Virus record (IMG/VR): IMGVR_UViG_2526164634_000030
Span: 1-24,429 of that record
Origin: a virus
Lineage: Duplodnaviria; Heunggongvirae; Uroviricota; Caudoviricetes
DNA: 24,429 nt
Reading direction: 5' to 3' (one strand)
Position 1 is the first letter of the stretch, and the number at the start of each line of letters is the position of its first letter. A program made the translations under genes and the position numbers. Below the pieces are notes generated by a model, which worked only from the letters and a program-made list of their open reading frames with translations, was not told the DNA's origin and searched no databases. Positions 3,546-24,429 of the stretch are shown here, in pieces.

Positions 3546-4052
3546 TTAAATCTTCCAGGAAATTTCTGCATTGCCGTTAGCATCACCGGCACCTGTGAAT
3601 TCAGCGTTGGTCAGCACCACATTTTTGCCACTGACTGACGTGGACATGAATCCACCCAGCGGCACTTTGATGGATTCATCAGTGGAGACGACAACGTATA
3701 CCGGGTCGCCTTTTTTGATAGTGCTGGCATCAAAATCAGAACCGAGATTAACGGTCACGTAGCCACGCTTCATGGCGTCGCCCGGGAAGTTCTTGCCTGT
3801 TCCCACCTGGCGAACCATGTCCGGCTGCGACGTGGTCGGATAAGGGCGCACGTAGATCCCCTTCACCTTGTCTGCGGTATCACCATCTGCCAGCGGCACG
3901 AAAAAACCGTCATCATCGTATTTACCAGCCAGCCCATAGGCAGCGAAGGCGTTATCGGATTTAAGGACCACCGGTTCGACGGTTAAGTCCTGCGGGCGAG
4001 AGACAGCCCCGGCAATACCAACAGGCATCCGGTACAGAAATACATTATTCAT
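3546..4052 (-). CDS. Small head-module structural protein (168 aa), between scaffold-like gene and capsid gene
   Basis: ORF track; conserved position in this type of head module. Family only vaguely recalled, not verified. Confidence 0.45.
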   Translation of the reverse strand: MNNVFLYRMPVGIAGAVSRPQDLTVEPVVLKSDNAFAAYGLAGKYDDDGFFVPLADGDTADKVKGIYVRPYPTTSQPDMVRQVGTGKNFPGDAMKRGYVTVNLGSDFDASTIKKGDPVYVVVSTDESIKVPLGGFMSTSVSGKNVVLTNAEFTGAGDANGNAEISWKI

Positions 4053-14182: not shown

Positions 14183-14338
14183 TTACTTCTCAGATTCGTA
14201 GTCCACGAAGACAGCAACCTCCGTCTGGCCGGTTCGGATTCGTACCTCGCAGAGGTCTTTCCTCGTTACCAGTGCCGTCACTATGACGGTTAAACAGATG
14301 ACGATAAGGGCGATTAACATCGCCTTTTGCTGCTTCAT
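14183..14338 (-). CDS. hok: Hok/Gef-family type I toxin (51 aa, MKQQKAMLIALIVICLTVIVTALVTRKDLCEVRIRTGQTEVAVFVDYESEK)
   Basis: Near-identical to HokD/RelF-type Hok peptides as recalled: single TM helix followed by the conserved CEVRIRTGQTEVAVF motif. The track ORF extends in frame upstream to 14395. Confidence 0.85.
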   Translation of the reverse strand: MKQQKAMLIALIVICLTVIVTALVTRKDLCEVRIRTGQTEVAVFVDYESEK

Positions 14339-14895
14339 AGCCTGCTTCTCCTTGCCTTTCGGCACGTAAGAGGCTAACCTACATTTGTGAGACATAGATT
14401 GGGCCTCAGATTAATGTTAAGCGTCTTGTAGGACGCGTAATGTTAACTGGGGCTTTTCTCTATCTGCCTTTTGGTGTTCATGCCTGAGGCAGATAGCCTC
14501 AAGCACCCGCAGCAATTCTAACTATCCAATAGATCAATGCCAACTTCTTTTCCTGCAACATCTCTCATCATAAGTGACCAAAATTCATCCAATCAGCACA
14601 AAAGAAACATTTAAAGCGTGAATGCTACCGAACGTTCATTTCAATTACATCGTTTTGATTTTTAACAGTTTTTACCTCAACAAATCAAATGGCATTAGCA
14701 TTCATCATGGAAGAAAGACTGATAAAAATGATCATTTTCAATGACTTATGATCACACCGGGTATTGCCAAGTCATTCCTTTTACGCCAGGATACCCACAA
14801 GTGAGTAGTCGAGGAGAGTTTGCCAATTTTTGCGATATAAATTTCAATGTCCGAAGAACCATTAATTGTTAATTGATTCTGTATAAGGTATTAAC

Positions 14896-15525
14896 ATGAC
14901 AATTTCATATATTCCTATTCTGAAAGCGAAACGTTCTGAGTTATCAGCTTTATCGCAGCTATCCATTGAAAAGAAATCAAAAATTTTGCCATTACTCGAA
15001 ATTGAACCAGTGCCAATTGACCCTGATTCAGGTATTGCCTTAAAGAGTTATAACGAGACTCTTATAGAGTTCGGAAAGAAAGTCTCAAAATCTTGCTCAG
15101 ATATGCAAGGTGTTTATATTGATGGATTATTAATTGAAGAGCATTTTATTTCTCCTGAAGATCATTACCCTATAATAAATGCGGTTAATCAAGTTAGAGA
15201 TATGGGGATAAGAGTTATTCCTGTCAGTTCACCAACTCGCCCATCTAACTATAAAGGAGCGATTGATGAATTAATGCAGAATGAAATATGCTTGAGATTA
15301 ACCACGTTAGATCTGGTTAACCCACAATTAATAACGCATTACATTAATCATCTGGGAATTCCTTTATCAAATATTGATATAATTATTGACTTAAGAGATG
15401 AGTTAACCGAGGATAAACTTAATTCCGGCGAACTATATACTTTGGCAATGGGATTGATAAACAATCTGGCGCACCTCAATGAATACAGAAAAGTGATTCT
15501 TTCTGGGGGTTCATTTCCTAGGTAA
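14896..15525 (+). CDS. AT-rich orphan protein of unknown function (209 aa as read; last codons and stop are supplied by the IS1 terminus)
   Basis: AAGG SD about 8 nt before the ATG; long uninterrupted ORF in a strongly AT-biased stretch; Lys/Ile/Asn/Leu-rich; ends ...ILSGGSFPR with Arg and stop read from the first bases of IS1. Confidence 0.5.
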   Translation: MTISYIPILKAKRSELSALSQLSIEKKSKILPLLEIEPVPIDPDSGIALKSYNETLIEFGKKVSKSCSDMQGVYIDGLLIEEHFISPEDHYPIINAVNQVRDMGIRVIPVSSPTRPSNYKGAIDELMQNEICLRLTTLDLVNPQLITHYINHLGIPLSNIDIIIDLRDELTEDKLNSGELYTLAMGLINNLAHLNEYRKVILSGGSFPR

Positions 15526-15535
15526 TGACTCCAAC

Positions 15536-16039
15536 TTATTGATAGTGTTTTATGTTCAGATAATGCCCGATGACTTTGTCATGCAGCTCCACCGATTTTG
15601 AGAACGACAGCGACTTCCGTCCCAGCCGTGCCAGGTGCTGCCTCAGATTCAGGTTATGCCGCTCAATTCGCTGCGTATATCGCTTGCTGATTACGTGCAG
15701 CTTTCCCTTCAGGCGGGATTCATACAGCGGCCAGCCATCCGTCATCCATATCACCACGTCAAAGGGTGACAGCAGGCTCATAAGACGCCCCAGCGTCGCC
15801 ATAGTGCGTTCACCGAATACGTGCGCAACAACCGTCTTCCGGAGCCTGTCATACGCGTAAAACAGCCAGCGCTGGCGCGATTTAGCCCCGACGTATCCCC
15901 ACTGTTCGTCCATTTCCGCGCAGACGATGACGTCACTGCCCGGCTGTATGCGCGAGGTTACCGACTGCGGCCTGAGTTTTTTAAATGGCGGAAAATCGTG
16001 TTGAGGCCAACGCCCATAATGCGGGCGGTTGCCCGGCAT
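15536..16039 (-). CDS. insB: IS1 InsB (167 aa; translated as InsAB' transposase by -1 frameshifting)
   Basis: Matches IS1 InsB as recalled (…[72 protein letters not shown]). Confidence 0.9.
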
Positions 16040-16233
16040 CCAACGCCATTCATGGCCATATCAATGATTTTCTGGTGCGTACCGGGTTGAGAAGCGGTGT
16101 AAGTGAACTGCAGTTGCCATGTTTTACGGCAGTGAGAGCAGAGATAGCGCTGATGTCCGGCGGTGCTTTTGCCGTTACGCACCACCCCGTCAGTAGCTGA
16201 ACAGGAGGGACAGCTGATAGAAACAGAAGCCAC
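15958..16233 (-). CDS. insA: IS1 InsA (91 aa)
   Basis: Matches IS1 InsA as recalled ([43 protein letters not shown]…). Confidence 0.9.
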
Positions 16234-16777
16234 TGGAGCACCTCAAAAACACCATCATACACTAAATCAGTAAGTTGGCAGCATCACCCGATTTCCGAGA
16301 AAAATTCTTGATGAGTTGTTTCTCGCTGCGATCTGATGCTGAAAGCTAAAGCAAGTAGCCAGGCTTTGTCTTTATTATCCATCGGAATACCTTATTACTG
16401 GTTGTGTGAGAACTCCAGTATACCACCGAGCCTGAAGTGGTAAAAAGACAGGCGCACAACACGAAGGCGCATTTCCGGTATTCATAAAGAGTCGGTCTTG
16501 TCTGTTAAATTTAAATGGTGGGAGTGCGCCTCCGGTTGTAAATAACGACATTGCTATGTGTAGTCTTTGGCGGCATCAGTTCTACTCCGTGGCTGCCCTG
16601 TCGCCCCTTTTTAAAGTGAATTTTGTGATGCGGTGAATGCGGCTAAGCGCACGCGGCACAGTTAAAAGCATCAGTGTTATGGGTGGATTATCCGGCGTTA
16701 ATTGTTAACTGGTTAACGTCACCTGGAGGCACCAGGCACCGCATCGACAAAATTCATTTGTAAAAATGGAGATAATT

Positions 16778-17619: not shown

Positions 17620-20600
17620 ATGAGCACCGATAAACAAGTTTACCCACTGTATTACGAAGCAAAAAATGACAAAGTAAGAAAACGTCTCGGTATTAAAGGC
17701 GGTTTTTACTGGGCTGAAGCGAAAAAATTATCCATTGCCATCTCCCGTGGTGCTGTTGCAATTGACGATGCTGGCTACGATGAAGATGACTTCAAAAAAC
17801 CTGTTCGCGTCAATTTGCCCATTGTTGATGACCTCCCGCCAGAAGGCGTATTTGATACGGAATTCTGCAACCGTTACGAAAAAGGCGGGGAAGATGGCAT
17901 CACAATGGTATTTATCGCGCCCTCCCCCTCTGCGCAGGGCAAACCAGCCAGCACTGACAACACCAATGTTAATGGCGAAGACATGACGGAGATTGAGGAG
18001 AATATGCTACTTCCGATTTCTGGCCAGGAGCTGCCCATTCGCTGGCTTGCTCAACACGGCAGCGAAAAACCAGTAACGCACGTTTCACGCGACGAACTCC
18101 AGGCATTACACATTGCACGGGCTGAAGAACTACCGGCTGTTACTGCCCTGGCTATTTCGCATAAAACCAGTCTGCTCGACTCGCTGGAGATTCGCGACCT
18201 CCACAAACTGGTTCGTGACACTGACAAAGTTTTCCCTAATCCTGGTAATTCAGACCTGGGACTAATAACTGCTTTTTTCGAAGCATACCTGGACGCTGAC
18301 TACACTGATCGGGGTCTGCTGACAAAAGAGTGGATGAAAGGAAATCGTGTTTCACGCATCACCCGCACGGCTTCCGGTGCTAATGCTGGCGGTGGGAACA
18401 AAACCGATCGCAATCCGAATTTAGTACACACCCTCGACACACTGGATGTGGAGATTGCAGCAGCCACACTTCCGATGGATTTTAATATTTATGAAATTCC
18501 GGGCAGCGTTTATCGTCGCGCAAAAGAAGTAGTCCTGAACAAAGAAAGTCCGTTCAAAGAATGGTCCGCAGCACTTCGTGCAACCCCGGGTATTCTGGAC
18601 TATTCCCGCGCCGCTATTTTTGCACTTATCCGAAGCGCACACCCTGAATTTTATCACTACCCGGGACGCCTTCAGGGGTATATCAACGCCTATTTGACGG
18701 AAACTGATCACGAGAACCCCAGCAAGGAAACTCTCACAGCTGCCCGGCATACGCCGGAAAAAGATATCCTGGAAGAAATTAACCGCGAGGTGGTTACTGA
18801 GCGTGAAACAGAAGAAGAAAAACCACAACCATCTGACGCAATGGCAGGTGAACAGGCAACAACTGAAACAATGGAACCGGATACAACTGAACATGGCCAG
18901 AACGCGCAGTCGCTGGATGCTCAGTCGCAGGTGAGTTCCGCTAACCAAGTAAAAGTCACCGCTGACGAAGTAAACAAAATTATGCAGGCAGCCAATATCA
19001 GCCAGCCTGACGCCGATAAGTTACTTGCTGTATCGCGTGGTGAATTTGTTGAGGGGATTAGCGACCCTAATGATCCGAAATGGGTCAAGGGGATCCAGAC
19101 TCGCGATTCTGTGAACCAGAACCAGCATGAATCGGAACGGAACGACCAAAAAGCGGAACAAAACAGCCCAAATGCGTTACAAAACGAGCCAGAAACGAAA
19201 CAATCCGAACCAGTAGCGCAACAGGAACCGGAAAAAGTCTTCACCGCCTGCGGTCAGAGCGGTGGCGGCAACTGCCCTGATTGTGGCGCGGTGATGGGCG
19301 ACGCAACATACCAGGAAACATTCGATGAAGAGAATCAGGTTGAAGTTCAGGAAAATGATCCGGAGGAAATGGAAGGTGCTGAACATCCGCACAAGGAGAA
19401 CGCTGGCAGCAATCCGCATTGCGATTGCAGTGATGAAGCTGGTGAAGCGACAGCACCTGTAGTAACTGAAATCATGTGGCCGTCATATTTCGAGCCTGGC
19501 CGCTATGAAAACCTCCCGAACGAGGTTTATCACTCCGCCAACGGAATAAGCAGCACAATGCTGAAGGATGCCCGCATCAGCCTGATGTATTACCACGGAC
19601 GGCACATTGCCGGAACTATTCTGGGCGAGGAAAGTGATGCATTGCTGCGTGGGCGGATTATTCACAGCTATGTTCTGGAAACGGATAAATTCGCTGATGA
19701 GTATGCCATTCCGGTACCGGTTCCTGAATATGTGGTTACTACTTCTAACGAACTGATCGCCATCATTAAAAAACACAATGCCAGTCTGCCAGCACTGATG
19801 ACACCAGAGCAGATGAAAGAGTGGATCGAAAGCTACAACAGCACTCTTATACAGCCACTGTCGGTAAGTGCCGGGGCCGAAGAAACAGGCATCCTTTACG
19901 GTTCGCTTCCGGAGGAATTCCGGCGTATTCCTGAGGGGGAAAAACACACAGCATCAGCAATGAAAGCCTGTATTAAAGAATACAACGCAAGCCTCCCTCC
20001 TCTGCTGAAAGCCAGTGGAACACGGGAGCAGCTCCTGGAGCAAATTGAAACTGTAGATCCAGAACTGGCAAAAAAAGAACGTGCTAAATCTTTGCCTTAC
20101 AACATCAGTGGCACAAAAGAGCAATTAACCGAAATCGCCCGGAAAATTCGCCCGGAACTGGTGACACTGGAGGACTGGCAAAAATGCCAGCAAGAAGAAA
20201 ACGCCGGGAAAACGTTTATCAGTCCGGATATGTATGAACAGGCAAAAAATATTCACGCAGCACTGCAAAACAATACTGATGCAGCAAGGCTACTCAACCA
20301 CCCGGATCGCAAATCTGAAATCAGCTATTTCGGGTTTGATGAAGAAACCGGGCTGGAAATCAGGGTCCGTCCTGATATCGAAATCCGGCTGCCATACGAA
20401 AGCATTTGCGCCGACGTGAAGTCAGTCAGCCTCGGTTATGTGCGACAGGAACGACTGAAAGATCGCCTGCACCGTGAAATTATTGAGCGTGATTATCACC
20501 TCAGCGCAGCAATGTATTGCGATGTGGCAAACCTGGACAAATTTTTCTGGATCTTCGTCAACAAAGATGCTGGCTATCACTGGGTGGCCGTCGTGGAAGC

Positions 20601-20763
20601 CTCGCAGGAACTCCTGGAACTTGGTCGACAGGAATATCGCCGGACGCTACGACAGATAAACGAAGCTCTGGAGACAAACAACTGGCCAGCACCGATTACC
20701 GAAAGTTATACCGACGAATTAAACGACTTTGATCTTCGTCGTCTTGAAGCACTGAGCATCTGA
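17620..20763 (+). CDS. recE: Exonuclease VIII (RecE)-like 5'-3' dsDNA exonuclease, 1047 aa
   Basis: Long blocks match Rac RecE as recalled (…NTNVNGEDMTEIEENMLLPISGQELPIRWLAQHGSEKPVTHVSRD…, …ASRGEFVEGISDPNDPKWVKGIQTRD…); acidic low-complexity middle; C-terminal nuclease domain; followed by an annealing-protein gene. Confidence 0.75.
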   Translation: MSTDKQVYPLYYEAKNDKVRKRLGIKGGFYWAEAKKLSIAISRGAVAIDDAGYDEDDFKKPVRVNLPIVDDLPPEGVFDTEFCNRYEKGGEDGITMVFIAPSPSAQGKPASTDNTNVNGEDMTEIEENMLLPISGQELPIRWLAQHGSEKPVTHVSRDELQALHIARAEELPAVTALAISHKTSLLDSLEIRDLHKLVRDTDKVFPNPGNSDLGLITAFFEAYLDADYTDRGLLTKEWMKGNRVSRITRTASGANAGGGNKTDRNPNLVHTLDTLDVEIAAATLPMDFNIYEIPGSVYRRAKEVVLNKESPFKEWSAALRATPGILDYSRAAIFALIRSAHPEFYHYPGRLQGYINAYLTETDHENPSKETLTAARHTPEKDILEEINREVVTERETEEEKPQPSDAMAGEQATTETMEPDTTEHGQNAQSLDAQSQVSSANQVKVTADEVNKIMQAANISQPDADKLLAVSRGEFVEGISDPNDPKWVKGIQTRDSVNQNQHESERNDQKAEQNSPNALQNEPETKQSEPVAQQEPEKVFTACGQSGGGNCPDCGAVMGDATYQETFDEENQVEVQENDPEEMEGAEHPHKENAGSNPHCDCSDEAGEATAPVVTEIMWPSYFEPGRYENLPNEVYHSANGISSTMLKDARISLMYYHGRHIAGTILGEESDALLRGRIIHSYVLETDKFADEYAIPVPVPEYVVTTSNELIAIIKKHNASLPALMTPEQMKEWIESYNSTLIQPLSVSAGAEETGILYGSLPEEFRRIPEGEKHTASAMKACIKEYNASLPPLLKASGTREQLLEQIETVDPELAKKERAKSLPYNISGTKEQLTEIARKIRPELVTLEDWQKCQQEENAGKTFISPDMYEQAKNIHAALQNNTDAARLLNHPDRKSEISYFGFDEETGLEIRVRPDIEIRLPYESICADVKSVSLGYVRQERLKDRLHREIIERDYHLSAAMYCDVANLDKFFWIFVNKDAGYHWVAVVEASQELLELGRQEYRRTLRQINEALETNNWPAPITESYTDELNDFDLRRLEALSI

Positions 20764-20774
20764 GGAAGGACACA

Positions 20775-21827
20775 ATGAACGAATTAACTCAACAAGAAAA
20801 TATTAACTCTAATGTTGCGGTTTTCAGCCCTCAGTCCCTGGCTGCAATTCAGACATTTTCCCAGGTAATGGCTTCCGGCATGGCTACTGTACCGGAACAC
20901 CTCCGGGGAAATCCATCAGACTGCATGGCCATCACCATGCAGGCGATGCAGTGGCAAATGAACCCTTACGCAGTAGCTCAGAAAACTTTCGTTGTGAATG
21001 GTGTGCTCGGATATGAAGCGCAACTGGTTAATGCCGTAATCAGTACTCGTGGGCCGCTAACCGGGCGTATTGAATATGACTGGTTCGGGCCGTGGGAAAA
21101 AATTATCGGGAAATTTGAAATTAGGAAGAACGACAAGGGGAAAGAATATCGTGTACCTGGCTGGAAGCTGGCCGATGAAAACGGGATCGGAGTTCGCGTC
21201 CAGGCAACACTACGCGGAGAGAGCAAGCCACGCGTACTGGAGTTACTTCTGGCGCAGGCCAGAACACGTAACTCAACGTTATGGGCCGATGATCCTCGCC
21301 AGCAGCTTGCCTATCTGGCACTGAAACGCTGGGCGCGCCTTTATTGCCCTGAAGTGATTCTTGGAGTGTACACCCGGGACGAACTGGACGAACCACAGGA
21401 AAAAATCATTAATCCGGTTCAGGAACATAAAAATACATCCGCCTGCCGTGCGGAACGTGAAACAACAATTATTGAGCAGGATGCCGGGGAAAACTGGATC
21501 AGTGCTTTCCGTGAACGTATTGAGCAGGCACAAAGCACCGGAGAAACAACATCACTTCGCCAGGAAGTGGAAGATCATAAAAATACTCTTGGCGCTCTCT
21601 ACACAGAACTTAAAGGAAAAGTGGTTCAGCGTCATCACCGTCTCAATGCTATTGCCCGTATTGAGACGATGATAAATGACCTGCCTTCATCAGGTGATCC
21701 AGAAGCAGAACAAAAATTTATTGCTCTGGAAAATACGCTGAATGCTGCACGACCACATCTGGGAGAATTATATGAGGCGTATAAAACGACACTGACAGAT
21801 ATGAAACCAGAATATATCGGCTCCTGA
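20775..21827 (+). CDS. Single-strand annealing protein (RecT/Redbeta-superfamily-like), 350 aa, partner of the RecE-like exonuclease
   Basis: Position immediately downstream of recE with an 11-nt gap; central segment (…GVLGYEAQLVNAVISTRGPLTGRIEYDWFG…) has a RecT-like pattern, but the protein does not match K-12 RecT as I recall it and is about 80 aa longer. Confidence 0.5.
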   Translation: MNELTQQENINSNVAVFSPQSLAAIQTFSQVMASGMATVPEHLRGNPSDCMAITMQAMQWQMNPYAVAQKTFVVNGVLGYEAQLVNAVISTRGPLTGRIEYDWFGPWEKIIGKFEIRKNDKGKEYRVPGWKLADENGIGVRVQATLRGESKPRVLELLLAQARTRNSTLWADDPRQQLAYLALKRWARLYCPEVILGVYTRDELDEPQEKIINPVQEHKNTSACRAERETTIIEQDAGENWISAFRERIEQAQSTGETTSLRQEVEDHKNTLGALYTELKGKVVQRHHRLNAIARIETMINDLPSSGDPEAEQKFIALENTLNAARPHLGELYEAYKTTLTDMKPEYIGS

Positions 21828-21890: not shown

Positions 21891-22085
21891 ATGCGGTATG
21901 AAAAAGTCAAACCATGTCCGTTTTGTGGTTGTCCATCAGTAACGGTGAAAGCCATTTCAGGATATTACCGCGCAAAGTGTAACGGATGCGAATCCCGAAC
22001 CGGCTATAGTGGAAGTGAAAAAGAAGCACTCGAAAGATGGAATAAACGAACTACTGGAAATAATAATGGAGGTGTTCATGTATAA
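21891..22085 (+). CDS. ralR: RalR/Lar restriction-alleviation protein (64 aa from MRYEKVKPCPFCGCPSV)
   Basis: Near-identical to Rac Lar/RalR as recalled, including the CPFCGC…CNGC Cys cluster and the C-terminal WNKRTTGNNNGGVHV. Confidence 0.8.
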   Translation: MRYEKVKPCPFCGCPSVTVKAISGYYRAKCNGCESRTGYSGSEKEALERWNKRTTGNNNGGVHV

Positions 22086-22266
22086 AATTACTGCCACTAT
22101 TGAAAAGGAAGGTGGCACTCCTACTAACTGGACAAGATATTCAAAATCTAAATTAACGAAATCAGAATGCGAAAAAATGCTCTCAGGGAAAAAAGAAGCA
22201 GGCGTTTCCAGAGAGCAGAAAGTAAAGCTGATAAATTTTAATTGCGAGAAACTTCTGTCCTCGTGA
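22078..22266 (+). CDS. ydaC: YdaC-like small protein (62 aa from MYKITATIEKEGG)
   Basis: GGAGG SD 5 nt before the ATG, which overlaps the ralR stop; position matches Rac gene order. Start could alternatively be 22066. Confidence 0.5.
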   Translation: MYKITATIEKEGGTPTNWTRYSKSKLTKSECEKMLSGKKEAGVSREQKVKLINFNCEKLLSS

Positions 22267-22366: not shown

Positions 22367-22654
22367 ATGGCAATGAATCTTGTGACACTCAAAACGTGGG
22401 GAAAACTCAGATATCCGGATAACCCACCATCAATATCAACGCTGAGACGATGGGCAAGGAATGGAAACATTTATCCTGCACCTGAACTACACGGGAGGAG
22501 TTACAGGGTGGTTCCGGAGGCTTTCTATATCAACCCAAATAAGGTTGATACCGATATAACACACCATCAGCCTAATGGGCGACAAGGGAGAGACAGTCCG
22601 TTACTGGAGAAGTTAAAACATGCAGCGGAAAAAATACGATCCCAATTTGCCTAA
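22367..22654 (+). CDS. xis: Excisionase-like DNA-binding protein (95 aa)
   Basis: Immediately upstream of and overlapping the integrase gene by about 35 nt; small basic protein with Xis/AlpA-like features (…SISTLRRWARNGNIYPAPELHGRSYRV…). Confidence 0.6.
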   Translation: MAMNLVTLKTWGKLRYPDNPPSISTLRRWARNGNIYPAPELHGRSYRVVPEAFYINPNKVDTDITHHQPNGRQGRDSPLLEKLKHAAEKIRSQFA

Positions 22655-23696
22655 AAACTTAACATATCGAAGGAGGGACAAAGCATATTACTGGCGCAAC
22701 CCTCTGACGAAAGAAGAATTTACACTAGGTAAAATTTCAAGAAGAGATGCAGTAGCGCAGGCAATTGAAGCAAATCATTATATATACAAAAACTACTCTC
22801 CTGCTGCCTTAATTGAAAAGCTTAAAGGGTTCGACTCATTTACTATGGCAGACTGGATTGAACGTTACAAAACGATTCTTATAAGGAGAAAAGTGTCCAG
22901 AAATACTTATAAAATTCGGGTAAATCAACTGGAGACAATAAAAGAAAAATTGGGAGAGATTTTACTGACAGAAATAACCACTCGCCATATTGCCGAGTTT
23001 CTTGATTTGTGGATTGAAGGAGGGAAAAACACAATGGCAGGATCAATGCGTTCTGTGTTGTCTGATATGTTTCGTGAGGCCATTGTTGAAGGACGTATAT
23101 CTCAAAATCCAGTAACACCAACAAGAGCACCGAAAATAGTAGTTACAAGAGAACGACTGAAACTAAAGACATACAACTGCATCAGGGAGGCAGCAGATCA
23201 ACTTCCGGCATGGTTCCCATTAGCTATGGATTTAGCCCTTGTAACAGGACAACGTCGCGAAGACATAACGAATATGCGGTTTAGTGATATTTATGATGAT
23301 CGTCTCCACATCAGGCAAATTAAGACAGGAATGATGATTGCTATCCCCCTGTCACTCAGCCTTCCTGTCGCTGGTCTACGGCTTGGTACAGTAGTTGAAC
23401 AGTGCCGCCTGGTAAGCCGGGGAGATTATCTAATCAGTGCCGGGATTAGAAAAAACAGCCCTGACGGCAGCATTCACCCGGATGGCCTGACAAAAAAATT
23501 TGTCGCAGCCAGAAAATTAACAGGTATCCAGTTCAGTGAAAACCCACCAACTTTTCACGAGATCAGAAGTCTGGCTGGACGATTGTACAAAGAAACATGT
23601 GGAGAAGAATTTGCTCAGCGTCTACTTGGCCACACATCGGAGAAGACAACAAAAATGTACCTTGATGAGAGAGAAAAAACGTACGTACTGCTCTGA
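22620..23696 (+). CDS. int: Tyrosine integrase, lambda Int family (358 aa)
   Basis: Aligns by eye with lambda Int along its length: N-terminal arm-binding region (…NLxYRRxxxYYWRxPxTxxEFxLG…), …LAMxLAxVTGQRxxD…, and C-terminal …FHExRSLxxRLYxxxxxxxFAQxLLGHxSxxxxxxY… with the catalytic Tyr. Confidence 0.9.
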
Positions 23697-23743
23697 TTTT
23701 AACGTAAATGGATTGTTAAATGTATTTTGGTTGTGATATAACC

Positions 23744-23760
23744 AAAAAAGACCGGAATAC
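23744..23760. repeat. Second copy of the sdsR 3'-terminal sequence (AAAAAAGACCGGAATAC); candidate att core or integration scar
   Basis: Near-identical (one extra C) to 23828-23843, which is the 3' end/terminator of sdsR; lies about 48 bp beyond the int stop codon. Confidence 0.5.
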
Positions 23761-23827
23761 AGAAATTCGAGTAAATTTCGGGGAATTTCGGGGAGACGTT
23801 TACAACTGATTGATTTTAAATACAATT

Positions 23828-23929
23828 AAAAAAGACCGAATACGATTCCTGTATTCGGTCCAGGGAAATGGCTCTTGGGAGAGAGCCGTGCGCTAAAAGT
23901 TGGCATTAATGCAGGCTTAGTTGCCTTGC
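23828..23929 (-). ncRNA. sdsR: SdsR (RyeB) small regulatory RNA
   Basis: The reverse complement reads GCAAGGCAACTAAGCCTGCATTAATGCCAACTTTTAGCGCACGGCTCTCTCCCAAGAGCCATTTCCCTGGACCGAATACAGGAATCGTATTCGGTCTTTTTT, matching the SdsR sequence as I recall it, including the terminal hairpin and U-tract. Confidence 0.7.
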
Positions 23930-24058
23930 CCTTTAAGAATAGATGACGACGCCAGGTTTTCCAGTTTGCGTGCAAAATGGTCAATAAAAAGCGTGGTGGT
24001 CATCAGCTGAAATGTTAAAAACCGCCCGTTCTGGTGAAAGAACTGAGGCGGTTTTTTT
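23831..24058 (+). ncRNA. ryeA: RyeA (SraC)-like antisense sRNA overlapping sdsR (boundaries approximate)
   Basis: Inferred: a promoter-like TTTACA-N16-TACAAT at about 23797-23824 on the plus strand, full antisense overlap of sdsR, and a bidirectional terminator at 24016-24058. Ends not verifiable without transcript data. Confidence 0.4.
24016..24058. terminator. Bidirectional rho-independent terminator between ryeA and yebY
   Basis: AAAAACCGCC…GGCGGTTTTTTT inverted repeat with an internal GTTCT…AGAAC sub-stem; A/T-runs on both sides. Confidence 0.45.
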
Positions 24059-24087: not shown

Positions 24088-24429
24088 TTAACAGAGTTTT
24101 TCAGCTCGTTCTATAAACGGTGCCAGACTCATTTTTTCGCCGGGATTGTTAGGATCATCAATCTGAATCACCGAAATGGGTTGGGCTTTAGTCTTCCCAC
24201 TGGCAACTTCCTTTTGTGCGATATCGTTTAAAGGATACTGCACGAGGGTACTTGGGTTGATGACATACAAAGCATTACCCGGTCGGCAAGTCAGCATCAC
24301 CTCTTCGCGATTAAACGCCCATTTGTCTTTACCCACTTCAAAACGGCTGACGGTAATCACCTGCGGTGCAGCCAGCGCCGCTGCAGAACTGGTGAGTAAC
24401 AGAAACGCCAGAATACTTTTTTTCATCAT
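24088..24429 (-). CDS. yebY: YebY-like periplasmic protein with signal peptide (113 aa); host gene flanking the prophage
   Basis: Signal peptide [22 protein letters not shown]; sequence and the sdsR-adjacent context match E. coli yebY as recalled. The ATG is at the window end. Confidence 0.7.

Follow-up and report, generated by a model that had tools for sequence, protein, structure and literature searches.

A lambda-type prophage junction within the terminator hairpin of the small RNA gene sdsR, and a conserved core-like repeat in its phage arm

The DNA analyzed here, referred to throughout as the window, is a stretch of 24,429 nucleotides in which the right-hand part is chromosomal, on the yebY side, and the left end still lies inside a prophage. 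Towards the chromosomal side of that prophage, a gene for a lambda-type excisionase (xis, 22367..22654, plus strand; Pfam PF07825 Exc, E 6.5e-14), which carries an excisionase annotation in a near-identical genome, is followed on the same strand by int (22620..23696), an open reading frame of 358 amino acids encoding a heterobivalent tyrosine integrase of the lambda family. The Pfam domains of that protein comprise an arm-DNA-binding domain (PF09003, residues 3-61) and the central and catalytic domains (PF22022 and PF00589); the residues of its RKHRHY active site (R212, K235, H313, R316, H338 and Y347) are invariant in an alignment of the family, and its identity is 38.6% to lambda Int and 41.5% to HK022 Int. 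Beyond the integrase are found the complete sdsR (ryeB) small RNA gene with a hybrid 3' end, on the minus strand (23827..23926; Rfam RF00111, 115 bits, model positions 1-100), the body of ryeA (sraC) on the plus strand (23824..23967; Rfam RF00101, 173 bits), and, in the chromosomal flank, yebY (24088..24429, minus strand, an open reading frame of 113 amino acids), which is annotated under that name in all matching genomes.

Downstream of the int stop codon (23696), two near-identical sequences occur on the plus strand, as a preliminary description of this DNA had pointed out: AAAAAAGACCGGAATAC at 23744-23760 and AAAAAAGACCGAATAC at 23828-23843, the sole difference being one extra G in the former. 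The 10-mer AAAAAGACCG has exactly two occurrences in the 24.4-kb window, against 0.07 expected, and was found two or more times in 0 of 100 shuffles; the pair of copies, moreover, is found again with equal spacing in over 100 distinct related loci and is therefore not a product of chance. Since the SdsR match in Rfam extends over 23926..23827 of the minus strand, the 23828-23843 copy constitutes the 3' stem arm and U-tail of that RNA, in agreement with its earlier description as the terminator end of an oppositely oriented sdsR, and a terminator scan likewise calls the sdsR terminator, with 11 pairs and a T-run. The 23744-23760 copy, termed the 'arm copy' below, is a direct repeat of the phage-side core half-site (an A-run followed by GACCG[G]AATAC) located in the int-proximal (P') arm of the phage attachment site.

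When an 830-nucleotide query spanning the junction was compared with complete E. coli genomes, all 5426 were matched, but the integrase side was matched in only 229, in which this integrase gene lies beside sdsR. In the remaining genomes (nearly all of those listed), homology with the window begins at 23827 and continues to the right; in genomes without the integrase, the homology break thus falls on the 23828-23843 copy, as expected from the original proposal that a prophage is inserted at the sdsR/ryeA locus. A second query, taken from the pphA-sdsR junction of K-12, is intact in 5191 of the same 5426 genomes, and approximately 4% of complete E. coli genomes are occupied at the sdsR site, nearly all of them by this integrase type. 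One further genome, NZ_AP027783.1 (hit H40), displays homology to the window that starts only at 23914, inside sdsR, and contains two matching places, and might harbor some other interruption of sdsR. The complete element is visible in FDAARGOS_1059, which is 99.95-99.98% identical to the window, as a prophage of approximately 42 kb that extends from sdsR/yebY to pinE/pphA. The matching core that had been anticipated at the other prophage end is present next to pphA, where it was read in two near-identical lysogens rather than in the window's own source; the empty site, as represented by K-12, contains a single core copy.

The sequences that define the integration event can be aligned in the orientation of the window: the empty site (...AACAGATAAAAAGAGACCGAACACGATTCCTGTATTCGGTCCAGGG), the far junction (...AACAGATAAAAAGAGACCGAACACGATTCCTGTTTTCGTCAACAAAC), the window junction (...AATACAATTAAAAAAGACCGAATACGATTCCTGTATTCGGTCCAGGG) and the attP of a free phage, PP818812.1 (...AATACAATTAAAAAAAGACCGAATACGATTCCTGTTTTCGTCAACAAAC). 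The empty site, both junctions and free attP together display the alignment pattern B-O-B', B-O-P, P'-O-B' and P'-O-P, and the left side of the window junction, when joined to the right side of the far junction, gives the free attP sequence. The crossover is confined to the interval 23842-23852 (ACGATTCCTGT), the limits of which are set by the phage-specific T23841 and the host-specific A23853, and in the attP variant L081 the divergence sets in right behind GATTCCT. This seven-nucleotide stretch (23844..23850) is the loop of the sdsR terminator and is enclosed by an inverted repeat of 10 bp without mismatches, the arms of which are GACCGAATAC and GTATTCGGTC. The first arm is part of the phage-derived A-run and core half-site at 23828..23843 (plus strand); the second is the host-side core half-site (23851..23860, plus strand), which forms the 5' stem arm of the sdsR terminator and is the same as in the empty site, the free attP having GTTTTCGTC in its place. 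The crossover interval and the inverted repeats suggest that the stem arms serve as core-type sites and the loop as the 7-bp overlap region, as in lambda and in integrations into tRNA genes.

The segment 23697-23860 is the int-proximal junction (BOP'; by the naming used for lambda, attL) of a lambda-type prophage inserted in the terminator hairpin of sdsR. A true core at 23744-23760 is ruled out, as the homology break and both junctions put the crossover at 23842-23852. The explanation as a whole, that is, an attL within the sdsR terminator hairpin accompanied by phage-borne arm elements, is assigned a probability of roughly 0.85, with the function of the arm copy graded apart.

For the 23744-23760 sequence, the preliminary description had offered two readings, a core-like element of the P' arm or the scar of an earlier integration, and it is the former that stands. 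A chromosomal scar, with the present prophage seated beside it, would account for the occurrence of two sdsR-like ends 84 bp apart, at a locus that is a repeated insertion site in Salmonella. That reading, however, is ruled out by free attP (PP818812.1, OK490361.1, OL617042.1, L040 and L067), where the P arm runs on without a break into both copies, with the sequence between them unchanged. Three independent phage records, of which PP818812.1 is a free phage genome and the other two are distant attP forms, contain the arm copy in free attP, and other contigs in attP form contain it as well; in addition, empty E. coli sites contain one copy only, and homology with nearly all of the non-lysogens listed ends at 23827. 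The scar thereby retains practically no probability.

Prophages of this type at sdsR/ryeB in E. coli are an instance of a published kind. In Salmonella, phages have been described to use the last 23 bp of ryeB as their att site and to insert there repeatedly, the expression of both ryeA and ryeB being altered by lysogeny (Balbontin et al. 2008, J Bacteriol 190:4075, on PhiW104 of Salmonella DT104, as relayed in PMC7380047 and PMC3333887), in keeping with the insertion hot spot to which the locus had initially been attributed. The likeness to PhiW104 comprises the position of att at the last 23 bp, the provision of the gene's end by the phage, and the alteration of the 5' part of ryeA by lysogeny; the differences are that the host here is E. 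coli and that its native end differs from the phage copy. Salmonella relatives of this integrase (approximately 74% identity) sit at the same core. Bobay et al. list ryeB among known phage targets, and a recent integrase survey includes prophages named for the RyeB site.

The organization of the locus also resembles the attP regions of lambda and HK022, in that homologous Int and Xis proteins are encoded, int is adjoined by a short arm in which three candidate arm-type sites follow one another, a tentative IHF-like site is located between those sites and the core, and inverted half-sites, putatively of the core type, surround a 7-bp center. It differs from them in that the core is an RNA terminator hairpin, that an extra core-like half-site lies beyond P'3, and that the AAATTTCGnnn consensus of the arm-type repeats is not that of lambda. 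A further parallel is provided by elements that integrate at the 3' ends of genes for tRNA and tmRNA and cross over in the stem-loop (Williams 2002, as cited in PMC3603311): a symmetric stem with a 7-nt loop is used, attP carries the displaced 3' end, and the RNA gene is left intact. In the present case, by contrast, the target is the terminator of an Hfq-type sRNA in a bidirectional locus, where the antisense ryeA and the downstream pphA are not restored likewise. The locus offers a base-by-base example of a lambda-type phage for which the terminator hairpin of an sRNA serves as core site and which substitutes the end of the gene with its own.

The 23828-23843 copy is an sdsR end brought in by the phage, in place of the original bacterial one: its sequence is that of free attP and differs from the native E. 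coli sequence AAAAAGAGACCGAACAC, which remains at the far junction. The attP carries AAAAAA(A)GACCGAATACGATTCCT, corresponding to the loop, 3' stem arm and U-tail that make up the last 23 bp of sdsR, and its perfect identity with attB in E. coli extends over only 11 bp. In the lysogen, sdsR is full length by Rfam; relative to native E. coli SdsR, a U-A pair replaces a U.G pair in the stem and the U-tract is slightly different, and lysogeny would give the RNA a perfect stem.

The same insertion would separate ryeA from its own promoter and 5' end, and pphA from its read-through promoters. RyeA is described in the literature as an RNA of approximately 272 nt transcribed from a promoter on the pphA side, and pphA as depending on read-through transcripts that begin at the sdsR promoter or at a heat-shock promoter located upstream of it. 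In the lysogen, ryeA's native promoter is left at the far junction together with the initial 36-38 nt of RyeA, pointing into the prophage, and pphA, which now lies 42 kb from the sdsR-side promoters, is probably cut off from its normal transcription as a result. A replacement promoter for ryeA may be supplied by the phage: a conserved block, TGTGATATAAC (23732..23742, plus strand), which is found 5-6 nt upstream of the arm copy in the form TGTG(A/G)TATAA and is confined to the E. coli/Salmonella/Citrobacter clade, can be interpreted as an extended -10 (TGnTATAAC, 23734-23742), with a predicted plus-strand start at approximately 23748-23750. Frohlich et al. place the sraC -10 box approximately 35 bp farther upstream for Shigella and Salmonella than for E. 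coli K-12, with a SraC that is approximately 35 nt longer, and report sraC to be absent in about half of the enterobacteria examined. A resemblance of the phage arm to the promoter region of native ryeA in K-12, suggested by eye only, was dropped. A sigma-70-like site (TTTACA-16-TACAAT, 23799..23826, plus strand; 10/12 matches in a consensus scan) is also directed into ryeA; it is only loosely conserved in relatives and overlaps the IHF-like site. SdsR and RyeA have been described as a toxin/antitoxin-like pair, and approximately 4% of sequenced E. coli may possess a rewired version of that circuit.

Following the arm copy are three tandem repeats, GAAATTCGAGT, AAATTTCGGGG and AATTTCGGGGA (23762..23794, plus strand), which are candidates for the arm-type integrase sites P'3, P'2 and P'1, and which share the consensus AAATTTCGnnn with a conserved TTCG every 10-11 bp. 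The triplet after TTCG is the same within a phage and different between phages, and it follows the identity of the four residues after LTYR (LTYR-xxxx, approximately residues 17-22 of Int, in the N-domain hairpin), in a set of sequences that are not phylogenetically independent. A third residue D is found with triplets AGG and GGG (motifs RRDK, KNDR, KNDK and KKDK), R with GAC (KARK, RNRN, RSRK, KGRK and KSRK), Q with ATA (RVQL, RVQQ and RVQR), and Y with TGT and TGG (HRYK, RSYK, KKYR and AKYK); the relation is less clean where the third residue is S or G. A phage with an integrase of 50% identity (KRDK, TTCG-GGN) fits this rule out of sample. Identical Xis proteins occur with different Int N-domain motifs and different triplets, which makes it unlikely that the repeats are Xis sites; since the co-variation of triplet and N-domain holds even with identical Xis, the repeats appear to be read by the N-domain of Int and would represent arm-type sites bound by it. 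P-arm repeats are found in the Salmonella-type attP, where the P' triplet is not shared. The Int N-domain hairpins and their arm sites may constitute a natural specificity-switch series, in which four residues re-specify 3 bp.

A match to the IHF consensus on the minus strand (AATCAATCAGTTG, 23803..23815) is a tentative candidate for an H' site. The consensus WATCARNNNNTTR is present at the same offset in 11 of 29 representatives, and another clade displays a plus-strand match at -19, such that 16 of the 29 carry an IHF consensus between repeats and core at one of two positions.

The conservation of the arm copy was assessed in 150 related loci from IMG/VR, gathered with two integrase alignments; a scan of genome contigs for relatives yielded only two close ones. 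The arm copy (motif in attP, GACCGGAATAC; consensus, aAAagaCcGaATA) is found in every sdsR-core locus among the 150, except the truncated L114 and one deletion variant, and persists in over 100 distinct relatives, the most distant of which has an integrase of 50% identity. The start-to-start distance from arm copy to core is 83-85 bp in 102 of 106 distinct sequences, a constancy that is not independent evidence because the arm copy abuts arm sites that are themselves constrained in position. In 28 representatives, drawn from a set of 31 sequences that share less than 90% identity over this region, the mean major-allele frequency is 0.90 for the arm copy, 0.75 for the three repeats, 0.57 for the 33-nt spacer and 0.98 for the core. 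In a Serratia/Yersinia-type clade the int stop codon is immediately followed by the arm copy (CTG TAA AAGACCGAATAT), and in Tbat2_3, the Int of which is 50% identical, a TAG stop overlaps AGACCGAATAT, with a repeat distance of 85 bp; the TAA to TAG change leaves AGACCG preserved. The base or bases that follow GACCG vary (G, GA, AC or AG), a variation that would be unusual if the binding site were strict.

The attP of lambda has no arm copy, nor has that of HK022, where the int stop abuts P'3 and runs straight into the P' arm sites. Missing from HK022, the closest well-studied relative, and kept in the relatives of the present phage, the arm copy is thus a conserved clade-specific feature, and possibly a detail of attP that has gone undescribed. 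Its identification as a fourth, inverted arm-type repeat was ruled out, in that GGTC is kept (the arm copy remaining GACCG, and core-like) while the triplets of the arm repeats change between phages. A co-variation of arm copy and core was also considered and found to be weak: L129 and L136 share GAGTA in both, but the position varies in many lineages. In those two loci (approximately 3580-3700), the host terminator itself contains GAGTA/TACTC, not GAATA/TATTC, with the same G in the phage core half-site and the arm copy.

The arm copy may represent an extra core-type half-site, bound by the core-binding and catalytic (C-terminal) domains of Int and located beside the outermost arm site; such a contact would stabilize or park the integrase protomer that occupies that site. 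We place this proposal, which derives from sequence comparison, at somewhat under an even chance. In lambda, the protomer at the outermost arm site captures attB. A more specific version, in which the arm copy would be a functional fifth core-type Int site, absent from lambda and HK022, that pre-loads or parks the attB-capturing protomer, is held more tentatively again.

Several other roles for the arm copy were weighed against that of a core-type half-site. It is unlikely, although not negligibly so, that it is bound by another conserved protein (Xis or a host factor), or that it is a slowly decaying relic of the capture of an sdsR end. The recognition helix of Xis, TL(R/Q)RWARNGN, is invariant in the family, from which an invariant site might be expected, and the arm copy is among the few invariant phage-only elements; there is, however, no reason for a protein other than Int to need a mimic of a core half-site, and the Xis sites of lambda are in the other arm. 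A relic, for its part, would not be expected to outlast a spacer that has diverged to 0.57, nor a TAA to TAG change that preserves AGACCG.

Somewhat less probable still is a reading in which the arm copy is conserved not as a protein site but because a plus-strand transcript encoded by the phage begins there, namely a substitute for RyeA that is expressed from the extended -10 at 23734-23742. The TGTG(A/G)TATAA block is maintained 5-6 nt upstream throughout the E. coli/Salmonella/Citrobacter clade, and the shifted sraC -10 and longer SraC given for Shigella and Salmonella by Frohlich et al. are compatible with such a start; yet the Serratia/Yersinia-type clade and Tbat2_3, in which the arm copy lies at the int stop, have no promoter block and conserve the arm copy equally well. 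The promoter block may well be real, but it leaves the conservation of the arm copy unexplained.

The arm copy might also act as RNA, if on the minus strand it supplied the 3' half of a second, sdsR-like intrinsic terminator, formed with the first repeat, that halts sdsR read-through into antisense int. Some relatives are able to form CCGAAT-N6-ATTCGG followed by a T-run (L096, fold z = -3.06), and in a read-through RNA from the window the 5' arm of sdsR is able to base-pair to the arm copy (z = -2.65). The hairpin of the window itself, however, is no better than shuffles (z = -0.13), hairpin covariation is lacking, with all measures equal to those of shuffled controls and outer pairs broken in at least about half of cases, and Tbat2_3 retains AGACCGAATA without a T-run. 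This candidate was rejected on those grounds and is considered highly improbable. Both the arm copy, as a conserved element, and the co-variation of N-domain and arm sites provide modest leads for the study or engineering of integrase specificity.

Several structural variants and neighboring features were observed in the course of these comparisons. One locus (L028, IMGVR_UViG_2728369554_000022, approximately 3590-3640) has a natural 84-bp deletion exactly between the arm copy and the core copy, which removes all three arm-type sites and should lock that prophage in place; the same deletion was found in none of the top E. coli complete-genome matches listed. L144 contains only two arm-type repeats, with an arm-copy-to-core distance that is shorter by one repeat unit. 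Four further loci (L112, L148, L152 and L154), with integrases 63-77% identical to a Serratia-type integrase, P0111, display neither the sdsR core nor an arm copy nor TTCG repeats in the sequence downstream of int, and may have rearranged ends or a different att site. In the window, a perfect 8-bp hairpin (TTTTGGTT / AACCAAAA, 7-nt loop) at 23725-23747 shares bases with the block that resembles an extended -10 and with the arm copy's A-run; its pairing is not kept in Salmonella-type relatives. The P arm of a near-identical prophage (L001, minus strand, approximately 42860-42880) contains ATTCCTGTATTG, an 11/12 match to the loop and host stem arm, which is not conserved in PP818812.1 and is thus probably due to chance.

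The phage record PP818812.1 (L003) is 96.6% identical to the window prophage over int and attP, and is named 'Actinobacillus phage vB_Apl-pPE4'; given that its attP is built on an enterobacterial sdsR terminator, the stated Actinobacillus host looks doubtful. The window prophage is a deletion derivative that is probably not inducible or able to replicate normally: an IS1 element (15520-16279; DDE_Tnp_IS1, E 2e-78) replaces approximately 6.3 kb present in the FDAARGOS_1059 prophage, with the loss of repressor-like and cro-like HTH genes, ydaT, ydaV and others, and with truncation of a 'Beta protein' gene (14896-15525). Its early region is Rac-like (22084-22262, 14333-14508, 16555-16606 and 17620-21827), comprising RalA RNA next to ralR, hok/sok, the DicF sRNA, recE/recT and kilR, and is combined with a late region of the contractile-tail type that includes a pin invertase.
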